From: a virus
Taxonomy: Duplodnaviria; Caudoviricetes
IMG/VR virus record: IMGVR_UViG_2654588123_000001
Span: 1-64,000 of that record
Length of the DNA: 64,000 nt
Reading direction: 5' to 3' (one strand)
A program made the position numbers and the translations under genes. The notes beneath the pieces were generated by a model, which was not told the DNA's origin, searched no databases, and worked only from the letters and a program-made list of their open reading frames with translations. Position 1 is the stretch's first letter. Each line of letters starts with the position of its first letter. This document shows, piece by piece, positions 1,363 through 42,153 of the stretch.

Positions 1363-4300
1363 ATGAAACACATATCGAAACGAAGAGAATACTATACCGC
1401 GCTGTCCCGCAAGATTGCGGTGGGGCTGGCCTCCGGCCTGCTCTTTGTGGGGATTGGACAGTACCCGTCCATCGCGCTGGCTCATCCTGATTCCTCCACC
1501 ACCGGCACATACAGCGCTACCGGAGACGTATCTGGCGGGATGTATACCGTAAATCCAGGGCTGCCTGTCACCACCGAGGCCGCCGGCGGCGCCGCTGTCA
1601 ATCCGGACAAAATGGCGGTTTCTGTCACCAACAGTACCCTGACGGTGAACGGTGTACTGAATAACAGCGGCTACGGCGGCTATTCCCACCGCGACGCTCT
1701 TGCTGCTGCGGCGGCCGCGCAGAACAGCCTCGTATTGAACGGCACCATCCAGGTTACCGCCGACGACGATAATCTGTACGGTGCTTTCGGCGGCTTTGCC
1801 TATGCCGGACTGACGAATGCTCCTGTCGGTAGCAACGGCGTGCTTCGTGCAGAAGCGTCAGGCAATACCGTCACGGGTACGGGTGCAGACTCTACATTCC
1901 GTTTCGTCACCGATTTCAGCAAGGTGACCATCCCGGAAGTTACTGAGTACAGCCCGGGAACCATTTCCCCAGAAGCCGGCCTGGAACTTAAATCGGCTCT
2001 TATGGGCGGTTACGCCGCGACTTCGGTGATGAGCACCGAGGGCGCAGCGGGGAAACGGAATGCGCAGTCCGTTCGTGCGTCGGCCATAGCCGATAACAAT
2101 ACGGTAACGTTTTCCACGCTGAACCTGCAGCCGGTAGTTGAGGTCACGGGGCAGGACGGCTCTCAGGGGCAGGCTATTGAGTACCGCAGTATGGTGACGG
2201 CGGGCGGTGGCCAGGCTATGGCCCTGAATAACGCCAGGGGCAGTTATGTGGACCACAGCGATACAAACATTGCCTCCGCCGATGGTAATACATTCACCGT
2301 CGGCACGCTGAATCTGGAAGAAACTGTCCAATCTGTTAGTGCCGAGCTGGAGCAGACCACCACGCTGAGCGGCGGCGACGCGCTGGCCCGATATCAGTCT
2401 CCCTCTTCCATGGAGAAGCTGAAAAGCGAAGATCCCCAGAAGAATGGTAAGGTGAGCATAATCACCGAGAGTTACCAGAATACTACATACAGCAATATCA
2501 TCAATACGGCTACCGCAGACAACAATACGGAAACGCTGGACGCTATCATTCTTGGTGGCAAACTCAATACTGACGACCAAGGCCAGGCAGCTACTGACAT
2601 TGAGGCCGAGGGAGAGTTGGAAGTAAGGGCCGGTCATGCGGAAGCTATTGTCTTCCTGAATGACAAGGACTCGAAGCTGGACGGTCTTGATAATAGCGCC
2701 CAGGCCAATGGCAACACCCTGACCGTCAGGAAGGTGGAACAGAATATCGAGCAGAGTACCAAGCAGGATGAACAAGGAACTGTCGTCCAGGCCTCCACTG
2801 TGACCATGATGCTGCATGGCGGCAATGCCCGGACAGAGATGACGCAAAATGGTACGAGCAACGTAAATTGGAAGAATGTCAGGAGCTCCGCTGCGGCGAA
2901 CAGCAACACGATCACGCTGGAAGACATCAGTTCCAACGTGACGGAAAGCTCCCTGACCGGTGGCGCGGCTACTTCGGATATCTTGCTCATGGAGGGCAAG
3001 GGCGCCATGGAGGCGACTGTCGCTTCCAACACGGCCTCGGCTTCCGGAAACACGGCACAGATGGGCCTCTACGCGCCGGTGAATATGGGATTGGGCTGCG
3101 TCGTCAGCGGTGGTGTGGCTGACGTCTCCGTAGCGGCTCAAAACAATTTCAACAACAATGCCGACACGGACAACGGATTGACGATGACCGTGGAAAACAT
3201 GAATGCCGATGCCAGCCACAATACTATCAAAGTGGTGGGGAATGTCGACAGCAGTGGTAACAACCAGTCTGCTGCTACGACTATCACCGCTAACGGCGGC
3301 TCGGCCACGGCAGGTCTGAGTTTCGTCGGCGCCACGACGAATACATACATAAGCCGGGATACGGCTTCCTGGCAAAACGGCGCGATTACAGCCAATAACA
3401 ACAATGTGGATCTGACCACCGCATATACCTATACAGCGGCTGGATCGGGCGCCCTGCCAAAGGCTGCCCTTCCCACCTTTACAGCGATGGGCGGCAATGC
3501 CAGCGGCAGCCTGGGCAATATGAATACCAACGCCAATGTGACGTTGGGAAATCTGCGCCTGGAGAGTACTGGCAACGCAATCACCATCAATAATAGCATA
3601 AACATTACCGGCGCGCCGAAGGGCCAACTGGATACGAGCTATACACTGACCGGCGGCGCGGCCTCTTTCGGAATCAACAATACAGCGCCGGTGCTGACGG
3701 ATCCGGCGGATTCGAAGAAAACGCTGCCAGTTACTCCCCAACCCTTCAATATCGACAGCGCTGCGCTCACCATCACCGCCAGCAGCAATACCATCAATGT
3801 AACGGAGACCATCACGGGCACGGCGGGTTCGGCATCTGGGGAGACGGCTGGTTCTACAACCGTGGATACCATCGAAGGCGGCAATGCATCCTTCACCTAT
3901 TTGGACGACGTAAGCGCCAAATCCACGGTCAGCCTCATACCCACTATTGAGGTTACCGGTAATACGGCTACGGTCACAAGCACGGATACCAGCAATGGCG
4001 ACGTCGCGTCCATCGAAGGGAGCACCTACTCCGGCGGTACGGCAGCTTCCAGCATCACCAGCGGCAAGGCTCCGGTATCAGGCGAAACGGCAGTCACCTA
4101 TACGACAGACAACACAATAAAGTATGCCCCAACGATGACCGTCAGCGGCAACACACTGACCCTCTCCAGTACCTTTGACGCCTCCGCCAGTACGGCCGGA
4201 GACGGGACTACGGTCGGCGTCATCAGCGGCGGCAAGGCGAACCTCGATATCGTCAATTATGGAAATAACACCACGTTTGATGTCAGCCCACGGGCAGATG

Positions 4301-6865: not shown

Positions 6866-8497
6866 TTATGAGGTCGTTTTTTTCCGGGATGCCGTTCTTG
6901 TGCGGGATTTGACCAGATCACCCAGCGGAACCTCGATTTCCATGCCATCCCGGAAGATAACCGTCACCCTCTCCTCATCATTCACGACCATATGGTCCAG
7001 AAGGTTGCACCAGAGACGTTCGTCAAATTCGGTGACGGCATCTCCGAGATGGTCGATGGTAGCTTTGACGGATTCGAAATACAACCTCTTTGTTTGTCGT
7101 TTCTCTAACTCAATCTTGCATTCCTCATATTTCTTTAACGCATCATCATACTCGTCCTCCAAGACTTTCCGCTTGGCTTCATATTCTGCCTTTTGCTCTG
7201 GGGAATATATCAGCGCGCCTTCAAGCCGTACTTCCTGCAAGGCCTTACGCTTATCATCATACTTATTCATCTTGGCTTCCAGTTCCTTAACGGCGAACAG
7301 TTCTTCATTGATGGCCATCAGGTTATCGGCCAACTCGTTTTTCCCACGCAGCCGTTCGTTCAGCGCGGTCAGGAAGAATCTCTGGAGCTCCTCCTTCGTG
7401 AACCATCCGGTCTCGCAGTATGTCTTTTTGTGGTATTTGTTACGGCACCGGAAGATTACTTTTCTGTATTTGTCATTGGAATGCCAGGTTGCCTCTGCAA
7501 ACCAGTCACCGCAGCATCCGCACTTCACCTTGCAGGAATATGCGTCCTTCCCACGCCACATAAGCTTTGATCCTTTACGTTTCTGGCGTTCCGCCTGCAC
7601 TGCGTCGAACATCTCCTTACTGACGATGGCCGGGTGGCTGTTTTCAATATAATACTTGGGCAGTTCGCCTTTGTTCACCTTCTGCTTCTTCGTCAGGAAG
7701 TCCGGCACATACCGTTTCTGCAGAAGCGCGGAGCCCTTGTATTTCTCGTTGGTCAGGATGCTGCGAACCGTTCCGGTATGCCAGCGGGGACCGCCTGCCG
7801 GACTCTTCACCCCCATCCCTTCCAACCTGTGGCATATCTGGGCGAAGGTCAGCCCATCCAGATACCATTGGTAAATCAACCGGACAGTCTCCGCCTGCTC
7901 CTCGTTGATGACCGGCTTGTAGTCAGGCCCGGGGTCATAACCCAGAAAAATCTTGTAAGGCATGTTGAACTTCCCCTCGGCCATGCGTTTCCGCCTGCCC
8001 CACTTGGTGTTCTCGGATATGGACCGGCTCTCTTCCTGGGCCAAGGAGGACATAATGGTGATGAGGAGTTCCCCCGAGGCGTCCAATGTTTTGATGCCCT
8101 CTTTCTCAAACTCCACCTCGACGCCTTTTTCTTTCAGCTTGCGAATCGTTGTCAGGCAGTCCACCGTGTTCCGAGCGAACCGGCTGATGGATTTTGTGAG
8201 GATCAGGTCGATTTTGCCGTCCATGGCATCGGCTATCATCTGCTTGAATCCCTCACGGTGCGCTGTGCTTGTACCACTGATGCCCTCGTCGGAATAAACC
8301 CCCACGAATTCCCAGTCCGGATTCCCTTTGATGTGTTCCGTATAATACTTTACCTGCATCTCATAGCTGGTCTGCTGTTCCTCCAAATCCGTGGAGACAC
8401 GCGCATACGCCGCCACCTTCCTGGCGATTTTCTTTCCGTCCGCTGTCGCCGTGAAAGGATTTATCGTCGCCGGTATCGTTTGCACAACAGGATTCAT
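6866..8497 (-). CDS. Large serine recombinase (resolvase + recombinase + Zn-ribbon + coiled coil)
   Basis: VAAYARVSTD catalytic motif, DEGISGT, ILTKSISRFARN, SLAQEESRSIS, CGCCG Zn ribbon. Confidence 0.95.
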   Translation of the reverse strand: MNPVVQTIPATINPFTATADGKKIARKVAAYARVSTDLEEQQTSYEMQVKYYTEHIKGNPDWEFVGVYSDEGISGTSTAHREGFKQMIADAMDGKIDLILTKSISRFARNTVDCLTTIRKLKEKGVEVEFEKEGIKTLDASGELLITIMSSLAQEESRSISENTKWGRRKRMAEGKFNMPYKIFLGYDPGPDYKPVINEEQAETVRLIYQWYLDGLTFAQICHRLEGMGVKSPAGGPRWHTGTVRSILTNEKYKGSALLQKRYVPDFLTKKQKVNKGELPKYYIENSHPAIVSKEMFDAVQAERQKRKGSKLMWRGKDAYSCKVKCGCCGDWFAEATWHSNDKYRKVIFRCRNKYHKKTYCETGWFTKEELQRFFLTALNERLRGKNELADNLMAINEELFAVKELEAKMNKYDDKRKALQEVRLEGALIYSPEQKAEYEAKRKVLEDEYDDALKKYEECKIELEKRQTKRLYFESVKATIDHLGDAVTEFDERLWCNLLDHMVVNDEERVTVIFRDGMEIEVPLGDLVKSRTRTASRKKTTS

Positions 8498-9792
8498 GCG
8501 CCGAACCTCCTTCCCTTATATTGCCTGCTTCTTTCCGCCCTGCGTTCCGGTGTCCACCAATCCTTTCGGCAGACCGGTTCCCAGGTTTCATCTATTATCG
8601 TCCCATCCTTCATATGGAACACCAGCCGGTGCTGCTCCGGAATGACTATCTTCTCAACCTTAACCGTAAACACCGCCTCATCAAATTCTTCCAGTCCCAG
8701 CACCCTGCAGCAGACCGCCTTCAGCTTCCTTTCCGGCAGGTACTTACTGGGACATTTCCCTCCCTTCCTCCGGGTGCTGCATATCCAGTCGACATAACCG
8801 TCCTTGCTGAACCGGCTGTACCACTTGCCACAGCTGCCGCATTGAATCTTATGGGTGAAGCAGGTCATGCCCTTCCGTAACATGAAGCCCATCTTCGTCC
8901 GGTACGCCAGAACCTCCTGTACTTTATCGTAGGTTTCCCGGTCAACAATCCCGGCATGATGGTGTTTGACATAATACCGATCCCTCTGGCCGATATTATT
9001 GATAACCTTCTTGCTGATGCAATCTCTTACAAACACTTTCTGAAGAAGCAGGTCGCCGGCATAAAGGGGGTTGGAAAGAATCCGGCGGACCGTGACAGTG
9101 CTGAACTGTTTCCCACGCACCGTCAGCCGGCCCTCTTCCCGCAACCGTTTTGCAATGGCATAAACGGATTCCCCACGAAGAAGGCCTGCATACATTTGAC
9201 GTATCACCTCTGCCTCTTCCGGCTCAATGACATACTGTCTGTCAACCCAGCGGTATCCGTATACGAACGTGCCGCCGCTGGTTTCACCGCGCTGATATTT
9301 TCTCCGGATGGCCCACTTGACATTATTCGAAATGGACACGCTCTCCTGCTCGGCAACGGCGGCGGTGACGGTCAGCAGGAACTCACCGCCCATTCCCGAA
9401 GTGTTGATATTTTCCTTTTCGAACCGTACCTCAATGCCGAGCCCTTTCAGTTCCCGGACGCTGTTGAGCAGGTCAACCGTGTTCCGTGCGAACCGGCTGA
9501 TGGATTTCGTAAGGATGATATCGATCTTCTTTGCCCGGCAGTCTTCCATCATCTGCAGGAACTGCTTCCGATGTTTTAAACTCGTCCCGGAAATCCCGTT
9601 GTCGGTGTAGATTCCTGCCAACTCCCATTCCGGGTTGTTCATAATGAGTTTTTCAAAATGAGCTGCCTGGGCCTCATAGCTGGATTCCTGGTCTTTCTTA
9701 TCGGTAGATACCCTGGCATAGGCAGCCACCTTCTTTTTCTGTATTTGTGCCTCCAGCGGCTTGGTGGCTGGGATTATTTCAGCCCCGTTCAT
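8494..9792 (-). CDS. Large serine recombinase (second, tandem)
   Basis: VAAYARVSTD, DNGISGT, TKSISRFARN, CGSCG Zn ribbon. Start moved to ATG 9792 (MNGAEII) behind RBS GGGAGGTG. Confidence 0.93.
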   Translation of the reverse strand: MNGAEIIPATKPLEAQIQKKKVAAYARVSTDKKDQESSYEAQAAHFEKLIMNNPEWELAGIYTDNGISGTSLKHRKQFLQMMEDCRAKKIDIILTKSISRFARNTVDLLNSVRELKGLGIEVRFEKENINTSGMGGEFLLTVTAAVAEQESVSISNNVKWAIRRKYQRGETSGGTFVYGYRWVDRQYVIEPEEAEVIRQMYAGLLRGESVYAIAKRLREEGRLTVRGKQFSTVTVRRILSNPLYAGDLLLQKVFVRDCISKKVINNIGQRDRYYVKHHHAGIVDRETYDKVQEVLAYRTKMGFMLRKGMTCFTHKIQCGSCGKWYSRFSKDGYVDWICSTRRKGGKCPSKYLPERKLKAVCCRVLGLEEFDEAVFTVKVEKIVIPEQHRLVFHMKDGTIIDETWEPVCRKDWWTPERRAERSRQYKGRRFGA

Positions 9793-9836
9793 GATTTCAC
9801 CTCCCATGGTATCTATCACTCTGAAGCCGCATATAG

Positions 9837-9986
9837 TCAAGTCATTACCGGAGTATACTTCTCGCGCATCAGCCTGTCCGCCGCATCGTACTCCTCCTGG
9901 GTGATGACGCCTTCTTTCAGCGATTTCCTGACTATGGCCATGGTGACGCTGTACATCATCTGGCTGTGAAAGGTCTCACGTTCCAT
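9837..9986 (-). CDS. SHOCT-like small protein preceding the recombinases
   Basis: MERETFHSQMMY...LKEGVITQEEYDAADRLMREKY with the SHOCT GxITxEEY motif; RBS AGGAGG. Confidence 0.75.
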   Translation of the reverse strand: MERETFHSQMMYSVTMAIVRKSLKEGVITQEEYDAADRLMREKYTPVMT

Positions 9987-10189: not shown

Positions 10190-10621
10190 TTATGTTTTCC
10201 TTACCGCAAAATATACAGCGGCAGCAGCTATCACATATGCAATATTGCGCTGCCACCTACTGTGCCGGAGCCTTGACCGTTCCTCGGCTTCGTACTGCTG
10301 CAATAATCTGTTGGCATTCTGCAATGACTGCTCCTGCCCTTCCAGCGTCAGCTTCAATGCGCCCAGCTGCGCCTTGAGCATCTGTGACTGCTTTCCGGCT
10401 TCCGTCAATTGCGTCAGCGACGCCTCCAGTTGTTTTCTCAATGTCGCGGACTCTGTCCTCTGCCTGTCGTTGATATTCCTCAACTCGGTCAAGTTCCTGT
10501 CTAACCTCTCCAGCTCCGTTTCCGTGATCTGGTACAGTTGCTCTGCCGAACATAAAGCCGGAATAAAAGATAAGCAGGCAACCAATAATGTGCAACACAA
10601 TACCCTTACAATCCTGAACAT
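10190..10621 (-). CDS. Putative spanin-like lysis protein (signal peptide, coiled coil, C-terminal TM)
   Basis: Follows the endolysin; N-terminal hydrophobic signal with possible lipobox LVAC; heptad coiled coil; C-terminal TM (IAYVIAAAAVYFAV) followed by RK. Confidence 0.55.
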   Translation of the reverse strand: MFRIVRVLCCTLLVACLSFIPALCSAEQLYQITETELERLDRNLTELRNINDRQRTESATLRKQLEASLTQLTEAGKQSQMLKAQLGALKLTLEGQEQSLQNANRLLQQYEAEERSRLRHSRWQRNIAYVIAAAAVYFAVRKT

Positions 10622-10625
10622 TCAT
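10257..10625 (-). CDS. Putative i-spanin-like protein (N-terminal TM, coiled coil), overlapping the previous gene in another frame
   Basis: MNVQDCKGIVLHIIGCLLIFYSGFMFG TM followed by an Ala/Glu/Arg-rich helical region. Its ATG is 4 nt upstream of the other ORF's ATG (ATGAATG). Confidence 0.5.
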   Translation of the reverse strand: MNVQDCKGIVLHIIGCLLIFYSGFMFGRATVPDHGNGAGEVRQELDRVEEYQRQAEDRVRDIEKTTGGVADAIDGSRKAVTDAQGAAGRIEADAGRAGAVIAECQQIIAAVRSRGTVKAPAQ

Positions 10626-10639
10626 TTCACCGCCCTCCC

Positions 10640-11230
10640 TCACTCAAGCAACCAATTGCCGTCGAACCACCGGTTTCCGACCTTCAGCCTGTCGGTGAAC
10701 TGCCACATCTTGGCACCGGGCCAGTCACAGGAATGCGCCCATTGCGCGCACCAGATGGGAGCGTACTCCGGCAGCAGGTTCGTGTAGATGCGGTTCTCCA
10801 ACCAGTCCAGACTTGCGTAGAGACCGCTGTTATATCCGTGGCGGTTGCATTCGGTGATGAACTCGTTGCACATGGCGGTGATGGTCTGTGCCGATGGCAT
10901 TCCATTGCGCTCCTTGTATCCGTCACCGTCTTCCATATCAAACCACACGCCCATCTCCAGCCGGCCCGGTGTCAGGCCGCTGGATTCCAGGATATGCATC
11001 ATGTAAGATGCCTCCTCCCAGGCGCCCACCCTGTTCAGCGCATAACTGTAATAGTAGACGCCAATCTTCAGCCCCGCCTCCAGCGCCTCATTGACATTCT
11101 TGTAGAACAGGGTATCCAGATGCCCGCGCCCGTAACCAAGCCGGATGATGGCAAACTCTATCCCGTTCTCCTTCACGGCCTTCCAGTCGATCCAGCCGTT
11201 GTTTTCCGATACATCAATTCCTTTTATCAT
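10640..11230 (-). CDS. Endolysin, glycoside hydrolase family 25 (lysozyme)
   Basis: MIKGIDVSENNGWIDW, FAIIRLGYG, GVYYYSYA, VWFDMED, WCAQW...MWQFT GH25 motifs. Confidence 0.93.
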   Translation of the reverse strand: MIKGIDVSENNGWIDWKAVKENGIEFAIIRLGYGRGHLDTLFYKNVNEALEAGLKIGVYYYSYALNRVGAWEEASYMMHILESSGLTPGRLEMGVWFDMEDGDGYKERNGMPSAQTITAMCNEFITECNRHGYNSGLYASLDWLENRIYTNLLPEYAPIWCAQWAHSCDWPGAKMWQFTDRLKVGNRWFDGNWLLE

Positions 11231-11730
11231 TATTTTCCCCTCCGTTGTAATAACTCATACAGCCGGGCCATGCTCTTCACCCCGGCATCTCCCAGGTTCT
11301 CGATGATGGACAGCGCCTCGTTCATAGCAAGGTAGCCGCAAACAATCTGGACGATCTGGGACGAACCCCCAGCGGCCATGCTCATCAGATCAAAGATGGC
11401 AGCCATCAGGAAGCAGATACAGTAAACGAACAGCTTGCTGACACCGCGTGTGCGCATCTCCGTGCTGTTTATCTTCCGTGCCTTCCGGGCGCTGTTGATG
11501 CCCTTCACGGCATCAAAAAAAGCAGGGGCCTCATTCCCCTGCTCCACCAGGTATGCGTAACTGATCGCTATCCATTTTGTCAGAATGTCCAGGTACAGCA
11601 GTACCCCGAACCCGATCATAAGGATGGAATATTTGTGCGTCACCAGACCCAGCACCGCTCCGGCAATCACCTTGATGTTTAGCATATCCCCCATCTTATC
11701 CAACACAGCGTGGACGATTTCCTTATCCAT
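11230..11730 (-). CDS. Phage holin (toxin secretion/phage lysis holin family)
   Basis: Several TM segments, LDILTKWIA, and the EALSIIENLGDAG signature; directly upstream of the endolysin. Confidence 0.85.
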   Translation of the reverse strand: MDKEIVHAVLDKMGDMLNIKVIAGAVLGLVTHKYSILMIGFGVLLYLDILTKWIAISYAYLVEQGNEAPAFFDAVKGINSARKARKINSTEMRTRGVSKLFVYCICFLMAAIFDLMSMAAGGSSQIVQIVCGYLAMNEALSIIENLGDAGVKSMARLYELLQRRGK

Positions 11731-11731
11731 A

Positions 11732-12856
11732 CTATCCTTCTCCTTTCCGGGCTTCTGCCCTTAAATCCCTGTATTCCGGTATCTCGCACTCCGTCAGTTT
11801 CTTCCGGTTCCGTAAGACGGATCCGTAAATCCGGCGGAGAACTTCACAATGCACATATTCCGTCCCATCTTCCGTAAACAGCCCTATCGGGCAGCGGTTC
11901 CTGCAGATGGATACCACAGGACAGCTGAAGCATTTCCGTGGTATCAGATCTTCCCACACCATTCGGTGCTTCTCCAACATCTCCTCGCAGGAATCATCAA
12001 TAGAGGAAATGACCCTGCTGTCGTTATGGCACCGGACGATGCTCCCGTCGAATTTGAATGACAGTGATATAACCCCGGGCGCACAGGGCGGAAACGGGGA
12101 TGTTGTAAAATGTTCCCGCCTGAACAGGTCATCGCTGATAAACTTTTCCACGAAAAAGTTGTACCGGTTCCCATACGGGTCGTTTCCTGCGATGATGTCG
12201 TCCGCCAGGGCATCAATCGCCCGTTCTATCTGCCCTTCCCGGAAGGTATAGATGTCTTTTGGGATATCGGACAGCACATTGATAAGCCCCATATCCACGA
12301 TGGTCTCCGGAAACAGTTCTTCGAGCATGGCAAACGCCCTGACCGGATCATCGTTCAGGGCGTTGAACACAAAATTCACGGAACGCTTCTTGCATTCCAA
12401 CAAGGCCTCAATGTTTTCTTTTGATGGGACTGCGTTCCGTACCGCCACCGGATTTGGCGCATCGTAGGACATCGTGAACAGTACCCTGTGCCTGTTGCAG
12501 AAATCTGCAATCTCCTTTGTCAGAAGCAGCCCGTTCGAAAAGATTCGGTACTGGCGTGGAAATATACCACGGGACTCAAACATCAATATGTATCGCTTAA
12601 TCGTCTCCCAATACAAGAGCGGCTCCCCGCCCCAGAAGTAAATCCGGGAAAAGAAGCCGTTTTTCACAGACAGCCATTTCTTCAGGAACAGTATCACCTT
12701 CTCCGGCAGTTCGGAATCCGGCTGCTGGCAGAACGTGTTTTTTATGGGCGTCTGGGAACAGTGCCGGCATGTCATATTGCAGGCAGGGCCTAACAACAAA
12801 AAGACCGCAGACAAACCGTGCAGATATTCTGTTTCCCCAGTCCAAGGTTTATTCAC
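11732..12856 (-). CDS. Radical SAM/SPASM domain enzyme
   Basis: CNMTCRHC (CX3CX2C), FWGGEPLL, and the full 7-Cys SPASM motif C-x12-G-x4-C...CFSCPVVSICRNRC...HC. Likely start is GTG 12856, overlapping the upstream stop (GTGAATAA). Confidence 0.93.
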   Translation of the reverse strand: MNKPWTGETEYLHGLSAVFLLLGPACNMTCRHCSQTPIKNTFCQQPDSELPEKVILFLKKWLSVKNGFFSRIYFWGGEPLLYWETIKRYILMFESRGIFPRQYRIFSNGLLLTKEIADFCNRHRVLFTMSYDAPNPVAVRNAVPSKENIEALLECKKRSVNFVFNALNDDPVRAFAMLEELFPETIVDMGLINVLSDIPKDIYTFREGQIERAIDALADDIIAGNDPYGNRYNFFVEKFISDDLFRREHFTTSPFPPCAPGVISLSFKFDGSIVRCHNDSRVISSIDDSCEEMLEKHRMVWEDLIPRKCFSCPVVSICRNRCPIGLFTEDGTEYVHCEVLRRIYGSVLRNRKKLTECEIPEYRDLRAEARKGEG

Positions 12857-14174
12857 CGCCACTGCCTTCACCTCCGGAACCTTCACCGCTTGAGCCTTCA
12901 TACTCATCATAATACCCGACAATCTTGAATGTGGTATTGGCCGTCAATGCGCCTGAAGTCCAAGACTCTTTACTATGGATAGCCGTTTTATATGTGCTTC
13001 CCTGCGTGATTTTCAAATAGTATCTGTAACTGTTCTTGGTATCCGTAATCTTTATTGTGGTGTTGTACTTGATGGTCACGGAAGACGGCTTGGTCGCTGT
13101 TGCAGAAGAACCGGATGTGTTGGTATATGTAATGGTCGCTGTCGGTGTCCACCCGTCAGCCGTCCATGTGAACGTAATCTTCGGTGTGATAGCCGTAGCC
13201 GCCGTTGCGCTGACAGTCGTGGCTGCAGTCACCGTTCCGCTGGAGCCGGACAATGTACCCTTTGTATATCCCGTCGCAGCCGCCAGGCTTGCTGTCCAGG
13301 TCGTGCCGTATCCGACAGTAAAACTCTGTGCCGAAGAGGTAGACGTCTTCGTAACTTCCGAAGCAAACGTGCCGTCGGACTTTTTGTTTTTGTACTTCAG
13401 CGTTATGGTCTGATGGGAAGTGGCATTCAGTTTCAGCGTAAACGTCTTGTATGTGGCAGAACCTGCAGATACCGTTGTAGCCGCTGTCACGGTACCGGAA
13501 GACCCGGGGGTTAACGCGCCTGCCGTCCACCCCGTCGCGCCGGCTATCGTAGCCGTCCATGTGGTCCCATGCCGGACTGTAAAGGACTGTGCGGAAGATG
13601 TGGAAGTCTTTGTGACCTCTGCCTCAAATCCGGTGTTGGCGGCGTTCCGGTTCTTGTATTTCAGCGTGATGGTCTGGTGGGTTGTCGCATTCAGTTTCAG
13701 CGTGTAGGTCTTCAGGCTTGCTGCACCTGCGGTAACTGTCACGTTTGCATTAGTCAGCGTACCACTGCTGCTGGGTGTCAATGAACCGGCGTTATACCCG
13801 GTAGCCCCAGCCACCGTTGCCGTCCAGGTAGTACCGTAAGGAAAATACTTGTTGCCGCTCGTCCAGGACGCCCCACCCGCCGTGACCGTGATTGTCTCGT
13901 TGGAAACAGCAGTAATGCCAAGCCGGATGAGGGATTTTGTCGCCAGCACATATTCCGTTCCGCCTTTTTCTATATGAACCGGGGTCCCGTAATCGTCATA
14001 AAACACTTGGGAATAGGTTGTCGGATATAAAGCAGCATACAGGTTCGTTCCATCTACGGTCACCGGCAGATATGCAGAATTGTATACTTTCGCTTCCGCC
14101 GTGGTCGTATACAAATCACAGGTGTATGTGGTGCTTCCCTTTGTGACTTTCAGGGTGTGTGATGATTTGCTCAT
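12849..14174 (-). CDS. Thr/Ala-rich repeat tail-fibre/receptor-binding-like protein with an acidic Gly/Ser tail
   Basis: About 2.5 copies of an ~87-aa beta-rich repeat (GTTWTAT.AGATG..AG.L..SSGT.T.ATTV.A...T.KT.TLKLNAT.HQTITLKYKN); C-terminus GYYDEYEGSSGEGSGGEGSGGE; lies in the tail-fibre position. Confidence 0.7.
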   Translation of the reverse strand: MSKSSHTLKVTKGSTTYTCDLYTTTAEAKVYNSAYLPVTVDGTNLYAALYPTTYSQVFYDDYGTPVHIEKGGTEYVLATKSLIRLGITAVSNETITVTAGGASWTSGNKYFPYGTTWTATVAGATGYNAGSLTPSSSGTLTNANVTVTAGAASLKTYTLKLNATTHQTITLKYKNRNAANTGFEAEVTKTSTSSAQSFTVRHGTTWTATIAGATGWTAGALTPGSSGTVTAATTVSAGSATYKTFTLKLNATSHQTITLKYKNKKSDGTFASEVTKTSTSSAQSFTVGYGTTWTASLAAATGYTKGTLSGSSGTVTAATTVSATAATAITPKITFTWTADGWTPTATITYTNTSGSSATATKPSSVTIKYNTTIKITDTKNSYRYYLKITQGSTYKTAIHSKESWTSGALTANTTFKIVGYYDEYEGSSGEGSGGEGSGGE

Positions 14175-14185: not shown

Positions 14186-15109
14186 TCAGACAATCCATAT
14201 CTTGCTCCCGTCGGGGAACTGAATTTTGCCGTCCGTTGTAAAAACAAAACTTTTACGGTTCGCAATCGTTCCGGCGTTTGTATGAATGTAGACCGTGCTG
14301 TCTGCCGTCAAGTGCAGATTTTCCGTATCGCCATTTAAGGTAATTGCTGACACCAGGCTCTTCGGGGATTCACCGGCGCCTATCACAACCGCACCACTGC
14401 TCTGGATGCCGAATCCGGTCCCATTGTTCGTGGTGGAGCTTGAAGGGAACACAAAAAACGGGTTCGTCGTATGCACCGTTGCGTCTGCATCCGTTGCCTT
14501 TAACTGATACCGGAACGGAAGATTGATGCCGGTTCCCTGTGTACTCGCTGTCCCGCTCACATTTAATGTGAAGTTGGATGCCGTCGTTACCGCACCGCTG
14601 AATGTACCGCCGGCCAGGGGCATATAGGTGCTCCCGGTCACTGCGATGGTAACCTTGTCGTTGGTTGCATCCGGTGTCAGCGTAATCGCATTGCCGGCTG
14701 CAAACGTAAGCGTGTCCTGTTTCGCATCTGCCTGAATGGTCGTACTCCCCACCGTGACATTAGCAAAGGTGTTCTGGTTCACCTCCGCCCCTGTCGCAAT
14801 ACCATTCAGCTTCGTCTTATCCGTGTTGCTCATGAATCCGTTGCTGCTGGTGGTCGCGGCATCATGTACATGCCCGTCGATGGAAAAATATGTGGAGTCA
14901 TGCCCATCCAGCTTATCTGCGTTCAGGTTAACGCACTTTGTCCCATTGGATTTCGGTATGTTGCCGCTGGCATTTCCCGGTGACAGACCGCACAGCTTCA
15001 GGGCATTCACGATTTGGTCCTCGATGACCGCGCGTAGCTGTTCCCGCTGTTTCGCAGGAAACTCCGACAAATACTCGTCATCTGCCGGAAATGTGGAATC
15101 GTATGCCAT
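14186..15109 (-). CDS. Tail fibre protein
   Basis: LNADKLDGHDSTYF...GHVH and ATTSSNGFMSNTDKTKLNGIATGAEVNQN tail-fibre motifs; YMPLAGGTFSG; follows the tail-tip gene. Confidence 0.8.
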   Translation of the reverse strand: MAYDSTFPADDEYLSEFPAKQREQLRAVIEDQIVNALKLCGLSPGNASGNIPKSNGTKCVNLNADKLDGHDSTYFSIDGHVHDAATTSSNGFMSNTDKTKLNGIATGAEVNQNTFANVTVGSTTIQADAKQDTLTFAAGNAITLTPDATNDKVTIAVTGSTYMPLAGGTFSGAVTTASNFTLNVSGTASTQGTGINLPFRYQLKATDADATVHTTNPFFVFPSSSTTNNGTGFGIQSSGAVVIGAGESPKSLVSAITLNGDTENLHLTADSTVYIHTNAGTIANRKSFVFTTDGKIQFPDGSKIWIV

Positions 15110-15125: not shown

Positions 15126-15152
15126 AAAAAAGGGACGCCATAAAACGCCCCT
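15126..15152 (-). terminator. Terminator-like hairpin between the tail-tip and tail-fibre genes
   Basis: GGGGCGTTTTATGGCGTCCC followed by TTTTTT on the minus strand. Confidence 0.5.
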
Positions 15153-18100
15153 TAATACCCCTTTATTTTTATGTCTACCGTTCCCGCCACTGCGGTATTG
15201 CTTGTGTTGAACACCTTGATAACGCACTCGGTCTTCGTCCTGCTTATCACCCTGGCGTGAACCGTTTCACCGATGGCATTGGCCGTCACATTTGGGACGG
15301 CATAGAAAGTATGCCCGTACGGAACGGTAGTGCCAGCCGCCGCTATCGAAGCAGTGATGGCGATATCCGTGTCCGGCACATCGATGCTGATGAGCAGGTG
15401 GTTGACCTCCGGTGTCTTATTGGTATTTTTCGTAGCCAGTTTCACCCGGAACTGAACGTACCTAAAACGCCGCTGCACCGGTTTGAACTCCGTCCAGTCC
15501 ATCCAAATGCTGTTGTCAAGGGATGTACGGAACTCCAAAACCGCAGACACATCCCCCGCATACATAACAGTCGAAACAAAGTACACGGAAATCTTCGCGG
15601 TAATGATGCTTCCGACATTGATCTTTGCCAGCGTGTAGGTGCCGCTTGCCGGATACTTCCCGGTCGAAGTGTTCAGTTTCAGTTTCAGTACCTGTGACCC
15701 GCCCAGGTCGGCAAACTTGGTCGTGGTATAGTCACTGAACCGGCCTCCCACAGTCTGGAAGTTGATACTTGATTCGCCGAACTCCGTGTTGCTGTGCGTA
15801 CCGCTCTGCCGGGCAAGTTCGTCAAAGGTCTGAATGACGTTCTTCGGCGGCAGGTTCTCCACGTTGACCCGCGAGGTCCGTGCGGCAGAACTTTTGAAAC
15901 CGGCCTTGTTGATGGCCACGATATGGTACTGATAAAGCCTTTCAATATCCACCGGGACGGTAAAGAAGTTGTTCGTCACCCCGGTCGCCACCAAGGCGCC
16001 GGTATCAAAACTGGAACCTTCCCGTATCTCGTACCCGGTCACATCGATGTCCGTGCTGACCGTCCAGTACAGTTCAACCATCTCGCCGTCCTGGTACGCC
16101 ACAAAATTCGTGCAGTTCGTGGGTTCCACCGTACACCGCAGGCTGGCCGACGTCTCATCCGAATAGAACCCCGCGCTGTTCAGCGTCCGGATCATGACAT
16201 GGACGCTCTCCGTCTCTGTCAGGGTGTAGGTCGCATACAGTTCGTTGGTCAGCGGGATCTCCTCGGCGCTGTCCCAGTTATCCCCGACCTTCACCTGGTA
16301 ACCCACAAGGTCACCGTCCGGGACGGCGTTCCATTGAATGTTCAGCTGGCTTCTATCCTTCGGGTTCTGCCGCAGCTGGATGACAGATACGGGCGTGGGC
16401 TCAAGGCCGAAGATGGCAGACACCTCCGCCGGGTACTGTGACTCGTTGCCCGCAATCGTCACCGCCTTAATCATCCACGAATACTGATGTTCCTCTTCAA
16501 TCATCACTTCAAAAGTCGTACCGCTGACGCGCGGGGCGACCATACTCGCCGTGTTCCAGCTTGTGCCCTGCTTGATGATATAATAAGCAACATCGGTCTG
16601 GTTCACCGCATCCCAGGACAGCAGTACCGTGGTCTTGTTCACCGTGCTTTGCGCCGCCCGGAAATTGGTAACGTCCATCGGTTCTATCGTGATGGTAATG
16701 CTCGTGTTGGTTACGGCGGATTCAAACCCCGCCACCGTGACAGCCTTGACCATGACATTGTATGTACCGGAGGCCGGCACCTGCCACTCAAAACGATTAT
16801 CCTTGATATCCACTATCTCCGTCCCATTCGCCCAGGTATTGCCATACCGTATCGAATAGTGGTCGATATCCTTGCCGGGGGAACGGGTGAACTTGATGAC
16901 AGCCTTGCTCCGGTCCTTGGTACTCTGGGTTACCGTCAGATCCGTCACGGCATCCGGTATCAGGTTCACTACCTTGGTCAGTCCCGTTGGGGCCTGTGAA
17001 TAGACGTCAGCATTATTGATGGCGGAAATCCAGAATTTATAGGTTCCGCTCGATGCTACCTGGTAGGTGGTCTTCCGGGTCTTGGTCCTTGCGAACTGTG
17101 TGCCTGCCGCCCACGAGTTTCCCGCCCGCAGTTCATACTGGGAAAGGTCACTGTCCGTTACGGCATCCCAGGTGAATTCCAGTACGCTCCGGTCCGTGGT
17201 CTGCTGTGTGACCGCAAAGCCTGTCACGTTCGACGGATACGGATAGATGGGAATCTGGCAGCTTGCCCCAGCTGACTGGTTGCCTGCATTGTCTACGGCA
17301 AACACCGTCACCGTGGGATTTGCTGTATTGGATACAATCGTGATGATATTGCTTGCCGTGGTATAGGTCTTGCCACCGGCAACAGAAACTTTATAGTTGC
17401 GGAAGTCGATGTCCGTATTCTCGTTCCAGGTCACCTCCGCCTTGGTACGGTCTGCCGGGTCAACCTTGTATGACAATCCCGTCACGGCCTTTGGCGGGAC
17501 GTCCTGTCCGCAGGAAATAAGGCCGGTGGTAACACCCGTGCTTTGGGATACCCCAAGAATCGTGACCACCTTGACATAGTAATCTGTCTTTGCCTTTACA
17601 TTGAATTCGGCAAACGTGTTGGATGTCTCCGTAGCGTTGGTCCATTTTTTCTTGTCCGTAGAAATAAGTACCGTGTACCTGCCTCCGCCGCTGGCGCGTT
17701 TCCAGGAAACGCTCATCATGCCGTGCCGGACGCGGTTCTCGTCGGTATACTGGAACTGCTTTGCTGACAGCCCGGTAACATTTTTCGCATTCCCCACAGC
17801 CTTTGTTGCATACTGGATGGGCGGTATCTCGTAGTTCTCCTCGAACAGGGCCTCCGCATACTCGATGCAGGTGATCCTCCGCGTGAAGTCCTGCGCACGG
17901 GTAATCGATTTCACAACGAACGGCTTTGAACCGATGTTGGCAATAGCCAAATCGAAAACATCCCCTGCCTGGGGCGGGTCGCTCTCTGAATAGTCCGATT
18001 CCAGACCGATGGTAGTCCACCCATTTGAACTCGTCTCGATGATGGTACACGGAATCGTGTACAGGTTGTCCTTTACCGTCCTGAACTGGATGCGGTAGCT

Positions 18101-20407
18101 TTTGGTCGTATCACTGATATAAACCGGCAGGACCATGGTCAGGTCATCCACGCTTTCGATGCGTCCGCTGTTCGCCCACTTCGGTACGTCGTGCGACACA
18201 AGGATGACGTCCCCCACCGTACAGGCGATGGCATCGATACCGGCCTCGAACGATACCGTCCGGAGCTGGTAGCGGTTACACATAAGATGATACTTGCCTT
18301 CCCGGTATGCCTGCTTATAGTCTGTTATGCCGTCCATGGTCAACTGGGCAGTCTTGGCATACCCGTCGCTGTCAAACGTGCTTCCGTAGATGGTCAGCAC
18401 ATCCCTTTGGTAATCAGCGTCGGCGTTGGTGAACGTGACCTCCACGCAGTTCGCCCGGTCGGCCACCTTCAGGAACTCCTCACTGAAAGAACCGGCGAGG
18501 ATGTTGCCCATGTTGAACATCTGCACCGGTTGCTGCACATGGTCATAGATACAGCCGTAGCGTGTCCCGAACCGCACCACCATGCCGCGCCCGATCGGCG
18601 CTATCCGCTGGTTGATGACCTCCAGCACCTCACCGCTGGTATTGATTTCAATATTGACCGTCAGATCCTTTTCATTGCACCAGTTCGCCCAGGCAGCAAA
18701 ATCCGAATAGCGGATGCGGTCTGCCGGAGCGCCCCGCACCTCATATTCCCAGTTCCCGGTGTTGATGTTCTTCAGCCGCCTTGCCTGATGCAACAGGTCG
18801 TAAGAGGCCCATGCCGGGTTGTCAGCCCGTTTCTTGACATAACTGCTCCCGTTCCACACATACACATAGGTGCGTTCCTTGAGGAACGACAGTGACGGGC
18901 TCCCGTTCAGCTGGTCGGTCGCCACCGCAGAGATGCCCAGAAGCGCTGTGCAAGGATAGGTAAAATCATCGTAGATAATGGAAGTGATGGCTGTAAGGTA
19001 GCAGGTAGAAGACGCCTGCGTATTCGTTTCCGCATACTGCCGGTAGGAAACCTTTACACGCACTTCATATTCTCCGCTGGGAATATGGTTGACCGTGAAC
19101 TGTTTCCGAAGGGCAGAATTCCGGGCAGCCGTGATAATACCGTTGCCGCTGCCGTTGCTTACGGTCAGAGTCGCCGTCTTATCGTTGCCGTTCTTAACGC
19201 TGCTGACCAGGCTGTCACTCCATTTGTCCGTGTCAACACGGAACGCCCCCACGGTCACTACTTTGGAACCGATATCCTTTTTCCGTATCGTGCCGGAATA
19301 GGAACCTATGCTGATCCTAACGTTATAAAACCAGCTGCGGTACCCGTCCTCATCGTCATCCCACAGGCATTGTATCTTCATAGTATATGAACCGGCGGCC
19401 ACATTCTTCGCCAGCGTCACTCCATAGCTGTTGCTGGCCAGTTCCTTGAACAGGTTAGTCCATGCGCCATAGGTAACATTGTCGTTTGCATCCGTGGTAA
19501 CTTTCCGGTATTCGATGTCCAAGTTCACTGTAGCATTTTCCACTTTACCGCTGTCCGAAATGTGGCATAAGCCGTTCGGGAATTCTATCTCAAACCGCAA
19601 TCCCCTTGTGTCTGTCCCGTTTGCCGTGTCAGTCACCCAGGTATTGTCCAGCTTGTAAGAAACATTCTTGGTAAAATATGTGTTGTTGAAATTGGTGATG
19701 ACGCTCTGGTCATTCGTTCCCTTGCGAAGTTCAAAGTCCGCGTCATCAAAATTCTCGATATCATTATCGTTCAGCTTGATGTCCGTGATGACAAGTTCCC
19801 CTTCCCCACAGGCCACAAGCCAGTTCAGGCATTCATCGTTGTCGTCGATATCGACAAACTTGGCGATGGTCTGTCCGCCGCTTTTCACCTTGCCGTAGGT
19901 CAGGGCAATCGGGTTGTTCTGGCCTTCCATGGTCTGGACGCCAGCCCAGGAATATGTAGCCTTGCTGTTCTCGGATTCATACCCGCCCAGGTCTGTCTTC
20001 TGACCGGAAAGCCTGCCGATAAGGGCAGAACCCAAAAACATGACAGCCGTAGCGGCTGCGTATGCACCCCAGGCACCTGCAGCAAACGCCTTGCCTAATC
20101 CGGCAAGCCAGCCACCGCTGGCGATGCCGAAGGACACCACGGACAGGGCGATGGCTGCCACGATGCCGAGGATGGACTTGCCACCCTTTCCGCCTTTTTC
20201 GATGACCGGATATATCACCACGAAATCTTCATCCTTGATAACTGTGTTTTCATCCACACTGTACCCGTTCACCGTGGCCTGCAGGTCAACGCCCTCTATT
20301 CTGTTTTCTGCCAGCAAATCCGCCAACGTGCCGCCAGCTTCGATATGCCGGATTTCCCTTCCGTCCTGCGGCGAGAAAGGATTTTTAACGAGTACCAGAG
20401 TTACCAT
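15152..20407 (-). CDS. Tail tip/host specificity protein (lambda gpJ-like, with gpI-like N-terminus and FN3 repeats)
   Basis: MVTLVLVKNPF ubiquitin-like N-terminus; PIALTYGK; NPAWASYDLL; FTRRITCIEY; several FN3-like P..VT.F.A.Q repeats. Confidence 0.88.
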   Translation of the reverse strand: MVTLVLVKNPFSPQDGREIRHIEAGGTLADLLAENRIEGVDLQATVNGYSVDENTVIKDEDFVVIYPVIEKGGKGGKSILGIVAAIALSVVSFGIASGGWLAGLGKAFAAGAWGAYAAATAVMFLGSALIGRLSGQKTDLGGYESENSKATYSWAGVQTMEGQNNPIALTYGKVKSGGQTIAKFVDIDDNDECLNWLVACGEGELVITDIKLNDNDIENFDDADFELRKGTNDQSVITNFNNTYFTKNVSYKLDNTWVTDTANGTDTRGLRFEIEFPNGLCHISDSGKVENATVNLDIEYRKVTTDANDNVTYGAWTNLFKELASNSYGVTLAKNVAAGSYTMKIQCLWDDDEDGYRSWFYNVRISIGSYSGTIRKKDIGSKVVTVGAFRVDTDKWSDSLVSSVKNGNDKTATLTVSNGSGNGIITAARNSALRKQFTVNHIPSGEYEVRVKVSYRQYAETNTQASSTCYLTAITSIIYDDFTYPCTALLGISAVATDQLNGSPSLSFLKERTYVYVWNGSSYVKKRADNPAWASYDLLHQARRLKNINTGNWEYEVRGAPADRIRYSDFAAWANWCNEKDLTVNIEINTSGEVLEVINQRIAPIGRGMVVRFGTRYGCIYDHVQQPVQMFNMGNILAGSFSEEFLKVADRANCVEVTFTNADADYQRDVLTIYGSTFDSDGYAKTAQLTMDGITDYKQAYREGKYHLMCNRYQLRTVSFEAGIDAIACTVGDVILVSHDVPKWANSGRIESVDDLTMVLPVYISDTTKSYRIQFRTVKDNLYTIPCTIIETSSNGWTTIGLESDYSESDPPQAGDVFDLAIANIGSKPFVVKSITRAQDFTRRITCIEYAEALFEENYEIPPIQYATKAVGNAKNVTGLSAKQFQYTDENRVRHGMMSVSWKRASGGGRYTVLISTDKKKWTNATETSNTFAEFNVKAKTDYYVKVVTILGVSQSTGVTTGLISCGQDVPPKAVTGLSYKVDPADRTKAEVTWNENTDIDFRNYKVSVAGGKTYTTASNIITIVSNTANPTVTVFAVDNAGNQSAGASCQIPIYPYPSNVTGFAVTQQTTDRSVLEFTWDAVTDSDLSQYELRAGNSWAAGTQFARTKTRKTTYQVASSGTYKFWISAINNADVYSQAPTGLTKVVNLIPDAVTDLTVTQSTKDRSKAVIKFTRSPGKDIDHYSIRYGNTWANGTEIVDIKDNRFEWQVPASGTYNVMVKAVTVAGFESAVTNTSITITIEPMDVTNFRAAQSTVNKTTVLLSWDAVNQTDVAYYIIKQGTSWNTASMVAPRVSGTTFEVMIEEEHQYSWMIKAVTIAGNESQYPAEVSAIFGLEPTPVSVIQLRQNPKDRSQLNIQWNAVPDGDLVGYQVKVGDNWDSAEEIPLTNELYATYTLTETESVHVMIRTLNSAGFYSDETSASLRCTVEPTNCTNFVAYQDGEMVELYWTVSTDIDVTGYEIREGSSFDTGALVATGVTNNFFTVPVDIERLYQYHIVAINKAGFKSSAARTSRVNVENLPPKNVIQTFDELARQSGTHSNTEFGESSINFQTVGGRFSDYTTTKFADLGGSQVLKLKLNTSTGKYPASGTYTLAKINVGSIITAKISVYFVSTVMYAGDVSAVLEFRTSLDNSIWMDWTEFKPVQRRFRYVQFRVKLATKNTNKTPEVNHLLISIDVPDTDIAITASIAAAGTTVPYGHTFYAVPNVTANAIGETVHARVISRTKTECVIKVFNTSNTAVAGTVDIKIKGY

Positions 20408-20810
20408 GTGCATCACCTGTATATTGATAAAACCCGACAATCACCCTGCGCCAGGCCGGGGATGATATCCTGTCTATGCAGACACCTATCCGTTCCCTTG
20501 CGTGGATGAACATCCCCCCGCCGATATAGACAGCCGTATGGTTGACGACCCCGTCCGGGCTGCCGAACCGGATGGCTACCAGGCAGGGCGCTGCCGGTTC
20601 CTTGATTTCTTTCCACGGATAGCCCCGGGTATTTCCTGTTATGAGTTGGTCTATCTTTTCCATATCTTTGTAATCCGCATCGTATTCCGGCACGTCGTAT
20701 CCGTAGCGCCGGTACACTTCCCGGACGACGCCGTAGCAGTCCAGCCCTTGTTTTACATCCCGTCCGTGGTTGGCAAAGGGTGTCCCGATAAGGTCCGTAA
20801 AATCCATCAT
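20385..20810 (-). CDS. NlpC/P60 tail tip assembly protein (gpK-like)
   Basis: LIGTPFANHGRDVKQGLDCYG...HTAVYIGGGMFIHA; ATGA overlap with the upstream gene. Confidence 0.88.
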   Translation of the reverse strand: MMDFTDLIGTPFANHGRDVKQGLDCYGVVREVYRRYGYDVPEYDADYKDMEKIDQLITGNTRGYPWKEIKEPAAPCLVAIRFGSPDGVVNHTAVYIGGGMFIHARERIGVCIDRISSPAWRRVIVGFYQYTGDAHGNSGTR

Positions 20811-40995: not shown

Positions 40996-41222
40996 TGTCA
41001 GAAGCAAAAGTGCTTCAAACCCAGTAACCACGGGCTTATGTCATACTTTGACAGTGCTATCCTTAACTTTTACTATAGGGATTTTTTATTTTTCCCCTAT
41101 AAAAGTTATATATAAGAGTGTCAGACAGTGACATAAGTAGTGCCAAACCCTAGATGGTTACTGGCTTTGACACAGTTTCATAAATTGATTCGTGCGACAT
41201 ATTATGACAGTCTATGCTGTCA
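40996..41222. repeat. Non-coding region with 8 TGACA/TGTCA pentamers and nested inverted repeats (origin-like)
   Basis: Pentamers at 40996, 41039, 41049, 41119, 41129, 41168, 41205 and 41218; inverted repeats CCAGTAACCA/TGGTTACTGG and TATAGGG/CCCTATA around an AT-rich core. Confidence 0.6.
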
Positions 41223-41265
41223 TACTTAAATATAGTGTTTTAGCCTGCCTGTTTCTTGTAGCAAC

Positions 41266-41296
41266 AAAAAACGCCCGCCTCGTTTCCGGAGCGGGC
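41266..41296 (-). terminator. Terminator closing the AT-rich cassette
   Basis: GCCCGC...GCGGGC stem followed by TTTTTT on the minus strand. Confidence 0.7.
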
Positions 41297-41361
41297 ATCT
41301 TGTCACCTATTATTTTTTCGCTTTCCTCGCGGCTTTCTTTGTGAATTACTCTTGTGTTATA

Positions 41362-41520: not shown

Positions 41521-41531
41521 TTTGATTCTCC

Positions 41532-42140: not shown

Positions 42141-42153
42141 CAAATCACCACCT

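Follow-up and report, generated by a model that had tools for sequence, protein, structure and literature searches.

In a window of 64,000 nucleotides of viral DNA (positions 1 to 64,000 of IMG/VR record IMGVR_UViG_2654588123_000001; Duplodnaviria, Caudoviricetes), by which we mean the whole stretch analysed here, two adjoining genes on the minus strand probably encode a two-part phage module, i.e. a C-terminal peptide tag carried by a tail-region protein of 441 amino acids (aa), and a dedicated radical S-adenosylmethionine (SAM)/SPASM maturase for which, on comparison with related loci, this tag is the most probable substrate. An original prediction, made from the letters of the window, had proposed that the phage post-translationally modifies its own virion fibre, probably on a Tyr/Glu/Ser tail. 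Our analysis upholds the tag as the likely substrate in this proposal, whereas the terms ‘tail fibre’ and ‘virion protein’ go no further than what gene position and an Ig-like fold suggest.

Co-occurrence of the tag with one clade of enzymes

Loci around homologues of the enzyme were collected from IMG/VR, GTDB genomes, metagenomes and targeted look-ups, and we counted those that had an enzyme of the same clade and enough upstream sequence (enzymes 36–95% identical to that of the window, plus that of L160 at 30%). A C-terminal [S/C]-x-x-E tag, mostly in the form GEGSGGEG, adjoined the enzyme in 46 of these 47 clade loci, whereas it was found in none of the approximately 124 loci with more distant homologues of the enzyme, with no stray matches among approximately 13,000 open reading frames (ORFs). 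The common denominator of the tags is [S/C]-x-x-E, mostly [S/C]GGEG, which occurs one to three times in approximately the final 20 residues. Examples, given with the identity of the accompanying enzyme to that of the window, are ...SSGEGSGGEGAGGGE (79%), ...GGEGSGGEGAD... (60%), ...SSGEGSDGEGSGE (59%), ...SQGEGSFSEGEGGGF (55%), ...SSSGEGSGGEGG (49%, in a P2-like myovirus), ...MGEGSGGEGA (46%, T7-like), ...AGEGSGGEGN (45%, on a 62-aa peptide), ...SSCGSEGGCGGGEA and ...SGCGGEGG (36–39%) and ...CGAEGCGGESSS (30%).

Approximately 28 distinct tag sequences occur on at least five unrelated kinds of protein, which span 62 to 672 aa and come from sipho-, P2-like and T7-like phages. These carriers comprise proteins of 441–622 aa with the N-terminal domain and Ig repeats, proteins of 171–204 aa in P2-like and T7-like contexts, peptides of 62–66 aa, a 672-aa protein and an N-terminal portion of a phrog_376 tail protein. 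The tagged gene lies two genes upstream of the enzyme in L004, L005, L283 and L285. At L158 (4300–8212), and likewise in loci of the L006 type (e.g. L006:5775–7062), the tag and the enzyme form a cassette inside a tail-protein gene: the 234-aa tagged protein of L158 corresponds to positions 4–177 of phrog_376 and the 692-aa protein that comes after the enzyme to positions 167–711, and from these alignments the cassette appears to have split a Gly-rich domain of this T7-like tail protein.

The tag-associated enzymes form one clade in our tree (SH-aLRT branch support 96), with a subclade for Ser-type tags (97) and one for Cys-type tags (82). Cys at the donor position is found only in the sister clade (L017, L024, L159 and L160), where the tags read CGSE, CGGE, CGAE and CGGGE. 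Because related loci share their labels by descent, we read the tree as a single origin with one Ser/Cys switch and not as many independent events.

Quite unlikely, in our estimate, is a reading in which the tag is no substrate at all and the enzyme is an accessory gene for some other target, be it a different virion protein, a molecule of the host or a nucleotide, with the Gly/Ser/Glu stretch then being a linker remnant, the insertion scar of a mobile cassette or a purine-rich signal for translational coupling. The tag codons (GGN GAR) are indeed purine-rich and Shine–Dalgarno-like, and GGAGG stands 8 nt before the GTG at 12862, an alternative start of the enzyme; the cassettes of L158 and of the L006-type loci sit within a Gly-rich domain of a tail gene, and some relatives of the 441-aa protein have a short G/D stretch at their end and no enzyme close by (P0145/L362). 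However, a signal in DNA or RNA would be conserved as nucleotides, whereas the GEGSGGEG core is written with varied Gly and Glu codons, its third positions vary and both serine codon families (TCN and AGY) are used, yet the peptide is kept, a pattern that points to selection acting on the tag as a peptide and not as DNA. Nor does a ribosome-binding site need 8–30 conserved residues that end exactly at the stop codon, and in the four loci where the tag lies two genes upstream it cannot be a translation signal for the enzyme, yet it is conserved. The absence of the tag from every non-clade homologue locus argues in the same direction, as does the co-variation of tail type with enzyme lineage described below.

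We also considered whether the enzyme might extend further at its N-terminus, with the tag being merely the alternative frame of this extension, as the enzyme frame is open upstream across the tag region in the window and in some database gene calls. This was rejected: in most loci the enzyme ATG abuts or overlaps the stop codon of the tagged gene (ATGA, TAATG), such that the tag region lies outside the enzyme reading frame, and the tag is conserved also where the tagged gene and the enzyme frame do not overlap.

Two scans for the tag were made more widely. On the window's own genome, a lenient test for such tails was matched by 3 of 17,238 stop-to-stop ORFs, among which only the 441-aa protein gene is a real gene. 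A scan of IMG/VR for DNA encoding GEG[STRC]GGEG, which is a weak test and is not counted as evidence, returned mostly frames that do not code for protein and acidic linkers inside large proteins; the genuine C-terminal coding matches among the matches listed were L175, L180 and L228, all of them enzyme loci.

The genome records of the loci name Segatella, Phascolarctobacterium, Bacteroides sp. CAG:545 and a Tenericutes metagenome-assembled genome, and all of these contexts would be tail modules of phages of gut or rumen anaerobes. Anaerobic hosts fit an oxygen-sensitive enzyme.

The tagged protein and its relatives

The 441-aa protein ends ...GSSGEGSGGEGSGGE, its full C-terminal tail being GYYDEYEGSSGEGSGGEGSGGE. 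Its AlphaFold2 model is an all-β string of β-sandwich domains with a mean predicted local distance difference test (pLDDT) score of 87.7, and the last 16 residues (426–441) score below 50, i.e. the tag is predicted to be disordered; a low-complexity tail distinct from the β-repeats had been described in the original prediction, and the model bears this out. The closest folds were those of uncharacterized gut-phage proteins, tail-collar fibres, baseplate proteins with Ig repeats and Gram-positive pilins or adhesins, all with the low TM-scores that are expected for a multi-domain model, and the protein matched no Pfam or PHROG family. Its gene position and Ig-like fold suggest a tail-region Ig-repeat protein that may well be present in virions.

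Homologues of this protein numbered 321, and among the best 120 of the 321 approximately 20 carry the Ser/Gly/Glu tag, many end without a tail and some end in Cys/Asp repeats. The relative P0183, which has no tail, has no radical SAM gene within 4 kb, and P0145/L362, which ends in a plain G/D stretch (...QGGSGDG), has no radical SAM gene downstream. The gene of P0156, which has the Cys/Asp tail ...DCSDGCGDGCGDD, overlaps a radical SAM gene that comes after it, and this enzyme belongs to another lineage, with 30% identity to the window enzyme and 29% to the Cys-tag clade. By this comparison, a change of tail type goes along with a change of enzyme lineage within one kind of protein, and from these sequences it seems that one protein kind hosts several tag–enzyme systems.

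The original prediction had placed the action of the enzyme on the C-terminal tail and had proposed a survey of gene neighbourhoods. Homologues of the clade follow a tagged protein at all but one of the 47 loci; together with the lack of the tag at the more distant loci, the variety of tagged proteins, the conservation of the peptide and the tagless relatives without an enzyme, this lends the claim strong support from comparative genomics. Its inclusion of Tyr among the targets did not survive. The conserved element is [S/C]-x-x-E, and enzymes 94–95% identical to that of the window are paired with tails that lack Tyr (L281 and L282), for which reason Tyr residues were rejected as the target.

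Other tails were noted on proteins of this kind. A 47%-identical relative of the 441-aa protein at L361:4001–6350 ends ...YYDDSDCSDGCGDGCGDD and is followed by an overlapping radical SAM gene whose product is 30% identical to the window enzyme, and acidic tails of the CxCxC type occur on the relatives P0152, P0157, P0207, P0224 and P0228. In addition, distant homologues of the enzyme stand in tandem arrays of four (L160:5001–9297) to seven (L161:1–10458) radical SAM genes, and the array of L160 comes after a 672-aa protein ending ...SGCGAEGCGGESSS.

The radical SAM/SPASM enzyme

The gene downstream of the tag encodes a complete radical SAM/SPASM enzyme, of a kind that modifies peptides or proteins, with the CX3CX2C and FWGGEPLL motifs, the seven-Cys SPASM domain and the lack of room for a recognition domain that had been read from the window before our analysis. 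Its match to PF04055 (Radical_SAM; E 5.9e-11, 43.2 bits against a cut-off of 29.5) places it in the superfamily, and it also matches the phage family phrog_1802 (E 9e-27). In an alignment of 26 enzyme homologues (A1; residues numbered from GTG 12862), C28, C32 and C35, the FWGGEPLL motif, the seven SPASM Cys residues and G273 are invariant. The SPASM pattern is C260-X12-G-X4-C278, C311-X2-C314-X5-C320-X3-C324, C339, in line with the seven-Cys motif CX9-15GX4C ... CX2CX5CX3C of the subfamily (TIGR04085/PF13186); the model TIGR04085 gave 26.2 bits, just under its cut-off of 27, and the region can be aligned to the corresponding domains of CteB, TigE and the anaerobic sulfatase-maturating enzyme (anSME). 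Residues C260, C278 and C324 are the counterparts of the three Cys of auxiliary cluster 1, and C311, C314, C320 and C339 those of the four of auxiliary cluster 2, matching in pattern and spacing C344/C362/C413 and C400/C403/C409/C432 of CteB. The stretch ahead of the first cluster Cys, of only approximately 25 residues, is too short for the recognition element (RRE, approximately 90–100 aa) of CteB-, PapB-, TigE- and SuiB-type maturases acting on peptides that are made by ribosomes and then modified post-translationally (RiPPs), and the profile alignments to CteB and TigE begin past the RREs of these proteins, at residues 90 and 104 respectively.

Against solved structures, the family profile gave E-values of 1.6e-34 for TigE (8VPO), 4e-25 for CteB, 2e-19 for ChlB (mainly N-terminal) and 7e-16 for anSMEcpe. 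No NCBIfam equivalog came close to its cut-off for this enzyme: the scores were 45.1 bits for PapB (NF047865, cut-off 340, the match being limited to the N-terminal 120 residues), 32.7 bits for anSME (TIGR03942, cut-off 349.45), 36.5 bits for QhpD (TIGR03906, cut-off 453) and 35 bits for YhhB (NF041707, cut-off 445). The AlphaFold2 model of the enzyme (mean pLDDT 90.2) gave structural Z-scores of 23.6 with CteB, 22.4 with ChlB, 21.6 with anSMEcpe and 19.5 with TigE; these lie within approximately 4 Z units, such that the fold comparison does not separate the chemistries and the fold does not reveal which one the enzyme performs.

The proposed reaction and its alternatives

During late expression in an anaerobic host, the 441-aa protein and the enzyme would be made from overlapping, translationally coupled genes. 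The enzyme would bind the disordered Ser/Gly/Glu tag (...SSGEGSGGEGSGGE) directly, without an RRE, and SAM would be cleaved to the 5′-deoxyadenosyl radical, which would lead to abstraction of a hydrogen within the repeated [S/C]-x-x-E motif and would leave the finished protein covalently modified. In the loci examined, the tag–enzyme pair was accompanied neither by a protease or exporter nor by any third conserved partner, and with no protease or exporter gene the product would be a modified intact protein and not a released peptide.

By analogy with PapB and QhpD, we tentatively favour the formation of small intramolecular rings, in which the Ser oxygen (the Cys sulfur in the relatives with Cys-type tags) would be joined to the carbon next to the Glu carboxylate, the donor atom sitting on the open iron of auxiliary cluster 1. 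The three Cys of auxiliary cluster 1 and the four of cluster 2 are the arrangement of PapB/CteB-type enzymes, as read from the sequence pattern, which leaves room for a non-Cys ligand at the fourth site. According to the passages on CteB, PapB and Tte1186 in PMC10177961, the open iron of auxiliary cluster 1 binds the substrate Cys or selenocysteine donor, and PMC12373016 describes, in its passages on PapB, the linking of Cys to an Asp or Glu 1–7 residues C-terminal to it. The C-x-x-E spacing of the Cys-type tags fits this donor–acceptor rule. The window tag has Ser at the donor position and contains no Cys, and Ser is also found there in most relatives; by analogy, an ether ring would form in these cases. 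A passage of PMC11499958 describes C–O crosslinks as products of radical SAM enzymes. Because the donor position holds Ser rather than Cys, the reaction proposed here may be new. TqqB is an example of ether formation by a radical SAM enzyme, and we know of no radical SAM C–O crosslink for a Ser–Glu pair.

Other modifications of the tag, i.e. L-to-D epimerization of Ser or Glu, a change at the backbone or at Gly Cα, or a crosslink to a second protein, seem unlikely to us when taken together. Radical SAM/SPASM chemistry is diverse, with the Z-scores of 19.5–23.6 spanning four chemistries; the EpeE/YydG epimerases are among the matches to the enzyme, although these are weaker; and the L158 cassette stands between the two halves of the phrog_376 tail protein, such that in phages with a split tail gene the downstream half could be the second partner of a crosslink. 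However, the invariant pairing of Ser or Cys with Glu at a fixed spacing suggests a donor–acceptor pair rather than a single epimerized residue, and the window has no split gene downstream, its next gene being that for the holin.

Formylglycine, which we rank second to the (thio)ether rings among the named chemistries, is nevertheless improbable. In this case the enzyme would act like an anSME, converting the Ser of [S/C]-x-x-E (Cys in relatives) and leaving a reactive aldehyde on the tail protein. Ser and Cys do fill the same position of the motif in different loci, anSMEs accept both residues, and the enzyme is as large as anSMEcpe and likewise built without an RRE, the matches between the two being full-length (profile E 7e-16, Z 21.6). 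However, its TIGR03942 score is only 32.7 bits against 349, and the enzyme family has one Cys where anSMEcpe, with extra Cys residues near the first SPASM Cys, has SSCGMNGTCTC, the C...G....C-H arrangement being common to the family and CteB. Furthermore, the Ser- and Cys-type tags go with separate enzyme clades and nothing shows one enzyme accepting both, and the tag is without the C/S-x-P/A-x-R motif of sulfatase substrates.

Two further chemistries were considered. Cyclopropylglycine synthases have a defining Gly-Tyr-Trp motif, the Tyr of which ligates auxiliary cluster 1 (PMC10878394). Their substrates have Val or Ile in a repeated motif. Cyclopropanation of the TigE type was rejected: this motif of TigE aligns to a stretch without any invariant or near-invariant residue in A1, and the tag has neither Val nor Ile. 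Three-residue cyclophane synthases of the ChlB, YhhB and XyeB type act on an aromatic-x-x motif with a conserved aromatic residue. The formation of cyclophanes is unlikely, as aromatic residues near the tag are not conserved, the tails of L281, L282, L156, L082, L004 and L005 having none.

Several points weigh against a tag that is the substrate for ring formation. Both the modification of the tag and the presence of the 441-aa protein in virions are predictions. Related loci share ancestry, such that the counts overstate the number of independent observations, and co-occurrence by itself is no proof of an enzyme–substrate relationship. The single exception in the clade, L284, has no tagged gene in the 1.9 kb available upstream. 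Neither partner was found among the cultured phages of the INPHARED collection, where tblastn with the 441-aa protein gave no match, and with the enzyme gave only matches of at most 31% identity, in Ralstonia and Achromobacter phages and in faecal contigs. With regard to the chemistry, TigE, the closest solved relative by sequence, makes cyclopropylglycine and not thioethers, and to our knowledge ether formation by radical SAM enzymes is confined to other families. The passages on PapB-type enzymes in PMC12373016 and PMC10177961 name Cys or selenocysteine donors and are silent on Ser.

Novelty and significance

A literature search gave no description of the pairing of tag and enzyme, in agreement with the original prediction, whose author knew of no system of this kind. 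Modification of the RiPP type, by enzymes and after translation, has been described in secreted peptides and in a few enzymes of cells, and our search gave no report that viral structural proteins undergo it. If the tag is modified, tail proteins of phages of strict anaerobes would carry chemistry that is not genetically encoded, which could affect host recognition, particle stability and the engineering of phages for gut bacteria; in addition, a minimal RRE-less radical SAM/SPASM enzyme with a portable tag of 8–14 residues would be attractive for protein labelling or stapling. The simplest purpose, although this is speculation, would be to give a tail or adhesin protein an acidic tip that is constrained and resists proteases. 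One may go further and propose that phages of gut anaerobes install an undescribed radical SAM crosslink, mostly a Ser-to-Glu ether ring, at the distal end of a tail protein that binds receptors or resembles adhesins, by means of a portable pair of tag and RRE-less enzyme that can be appended to, or can split, almost any tail protein, the modification being needed for adsorption or for survival in the protease-rich gut; this extended proposal we regard as doubtful.

Genomic context

The late region of the prophage, which is of the siphovirus type, reads, on the minus strand, GpJ-like protein, 307-aa protein, 441-aa protein, enzyme, holin, endolysin, spanin-like ORFs and, at the prophage end, two large serine recombinases (Table 1). 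The genes of the enzyme and the 441-aa protein therefore sit between the tail genes and those of the holin and endolysin, the 441-aa gene being the last of the tail block. The original prediction had given both this location and the overlap of a GTG start with the upstream stop codon. The enzyme reading frame is open from 12922 (minus-strand ORF 11732–12922), and the candidate start at GTG 12856 gives an 8-nt overlap (GTGAATAA) with the upstream TAA at 12851–12849, the GTG at 12862 being the alternative noted above. In homologues the enzyme starts at the equivalent position with ATGA or TAATG overlaps, and translational coupling would therefore be a trait of the family.

Table 1. Positions in the window of the tagged gene, the enzyme gene and neighbouring late genes
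Feature	Position	Strand	Basis or remarks
441-aa tag-bearing tail-region protein gene	12849..14174	-	ORF, AlphaFold2 model
Architecture of the 441-aa protein			conserved N-terminal domain (~residues 1-78); Thr-rich Ig-like repeats; C-terminal β domain; disordered tag (predicted)
C-terminal tail coding region, GYYDEYEGSSGEGSGGEGSGGE	12852..12917	-	
Conserved tag core, SSGEGSGGEGSGGE	12852-12893	-	[S]-x(1-2)-E motif occurs three times
Radical SAM/SPASM enzyme gene, 374 aa from GTG 12856	11732..12856	-	PF04055, phrog_1802
CX3CX2C motif (C28, C32, C35; CNMTCRHC), radical SAM [4Fe-4S] cluster binding	12758..12781	-	invariant in alignment A1
SPASM region, seven invariant Cys	11846..12085	-	alignment A1; alignments to CteB and anSME
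307-aa protein resembling tail fibres, next gene upstream of the tagged one	14186..15109	-	phrog_7389 ‘tail fiber protein’, E 2.6e-14
1762-aa GpJ-like tail tip/host-specificity protein	15152..20440	-	PF13550 Phage-tail_3, PF24801 FNIII-A_GpJ
Holin, directly downstream of the enzyme gene	11230..11730	-	PF05105, E 9.9e-13
GH25 endolysin	10640..11230	-	PF01183, E 6.4e-31

Further features were noted elsewhere in the window. Just after the endolysin gene, at 10190–10643 on the minus strand, two ORFs in different frames, of 143 and 128 aa, share nearly all of their length; one of them has a weak match to an Rz-like spanin (phrog_89, E 0.006), and the two may be an embedded spanin pair. The two serine recombinases (543 and 448 aa; Resolvase, Recombinase and Zn-ribbon domains) are adjacent at 6866–9840 on the minus strand, with a 4-nt overlap, at the prophage end beside the lysis genes. 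The GC content is approximately 0.52–0.57 across most of the prophage in the window, and an AT-rich island at 41000–47000 (GC 0.33–0.42 against approximately 0.53 around it), with ORFs of 1050 and 540 aa, looks like a foreign cassette in the prophage. Just outside the prophage, at 1363–6369 on the plus strand, a 1668-aa ORF begins with a segment resembling a signal peptide, continues with long repeats rich in Thr, Ser, Ala and Gly, and closes with a part that resembles a β-barrel; it has no Pfam match at E 1e-4 and has the look of an autotransporter adhesin from a diderm host.

Comparison with known systems

Among characterized systems, the ranthipeptide-type thioether maturases PapB/PapA (freyrasin) and CteB/CteA share several features with the pair in the window: their enzymes are radical SAM/SPASM proteins with three Cys on cluster 1 and four on cluster 2, their substrates carry a repeated short motif at the C-terminal end in which a donor is followed by an acidic acceptor 1–7 residues on, the substrate gene lies directly upstream, and CteB is the best structural match to the enzyme (Z 23.6). 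They differ in that the window enzyme lacks an RRE, its putative substrate is a full-size tail-region protein of a phage and not a leader–core peptide, the donor is Ser in the window and most relatives instead of Cys, and there is no protease or exporter.

TigE/TvgB offers the best sequence match among solved structures and a substrate with a repeated short motif (TIGSVS). However, TigE has an RRE, and its Gly-Tyr-Trp motif has no conserved counterpart in the window family. ChlB and other RRE-less synthases of three-residue cyclophanes are of the same length as the enzyme, likewise lack an RRE and bind their substrates directly (Z 22.4 for ChlB), whereas a cyclophane needs an aromatic residue and the sequence match to ChlB is mainly N-terminal.

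The anSMEs (AtsB and anSMEcpe) also have no RRE, are approximately 370 aa in length, contain a SPASM domain and modify a folded protein at Ser or Cys. They are set apart by the extra Cys residues of anSMEcpe, which the window family lacks, and the tag contains no sulfatase motif, nor is there a sulfatase gene nearby. Lastly, the radical SAM/SPASM enzyme QhpD forms crosslinks between Cys and Asp or Glu in a protein subunit that stays in the final assembly. Although the QhpD/QhpC system matures a cellular metabolic enzyme (quinohemoprotein amine dehydrogenase), uses Cys donors and has no phage context, it resembles the module proposed here in that the modified protein would remain part of an assembly and would not be secreted as a peptide.

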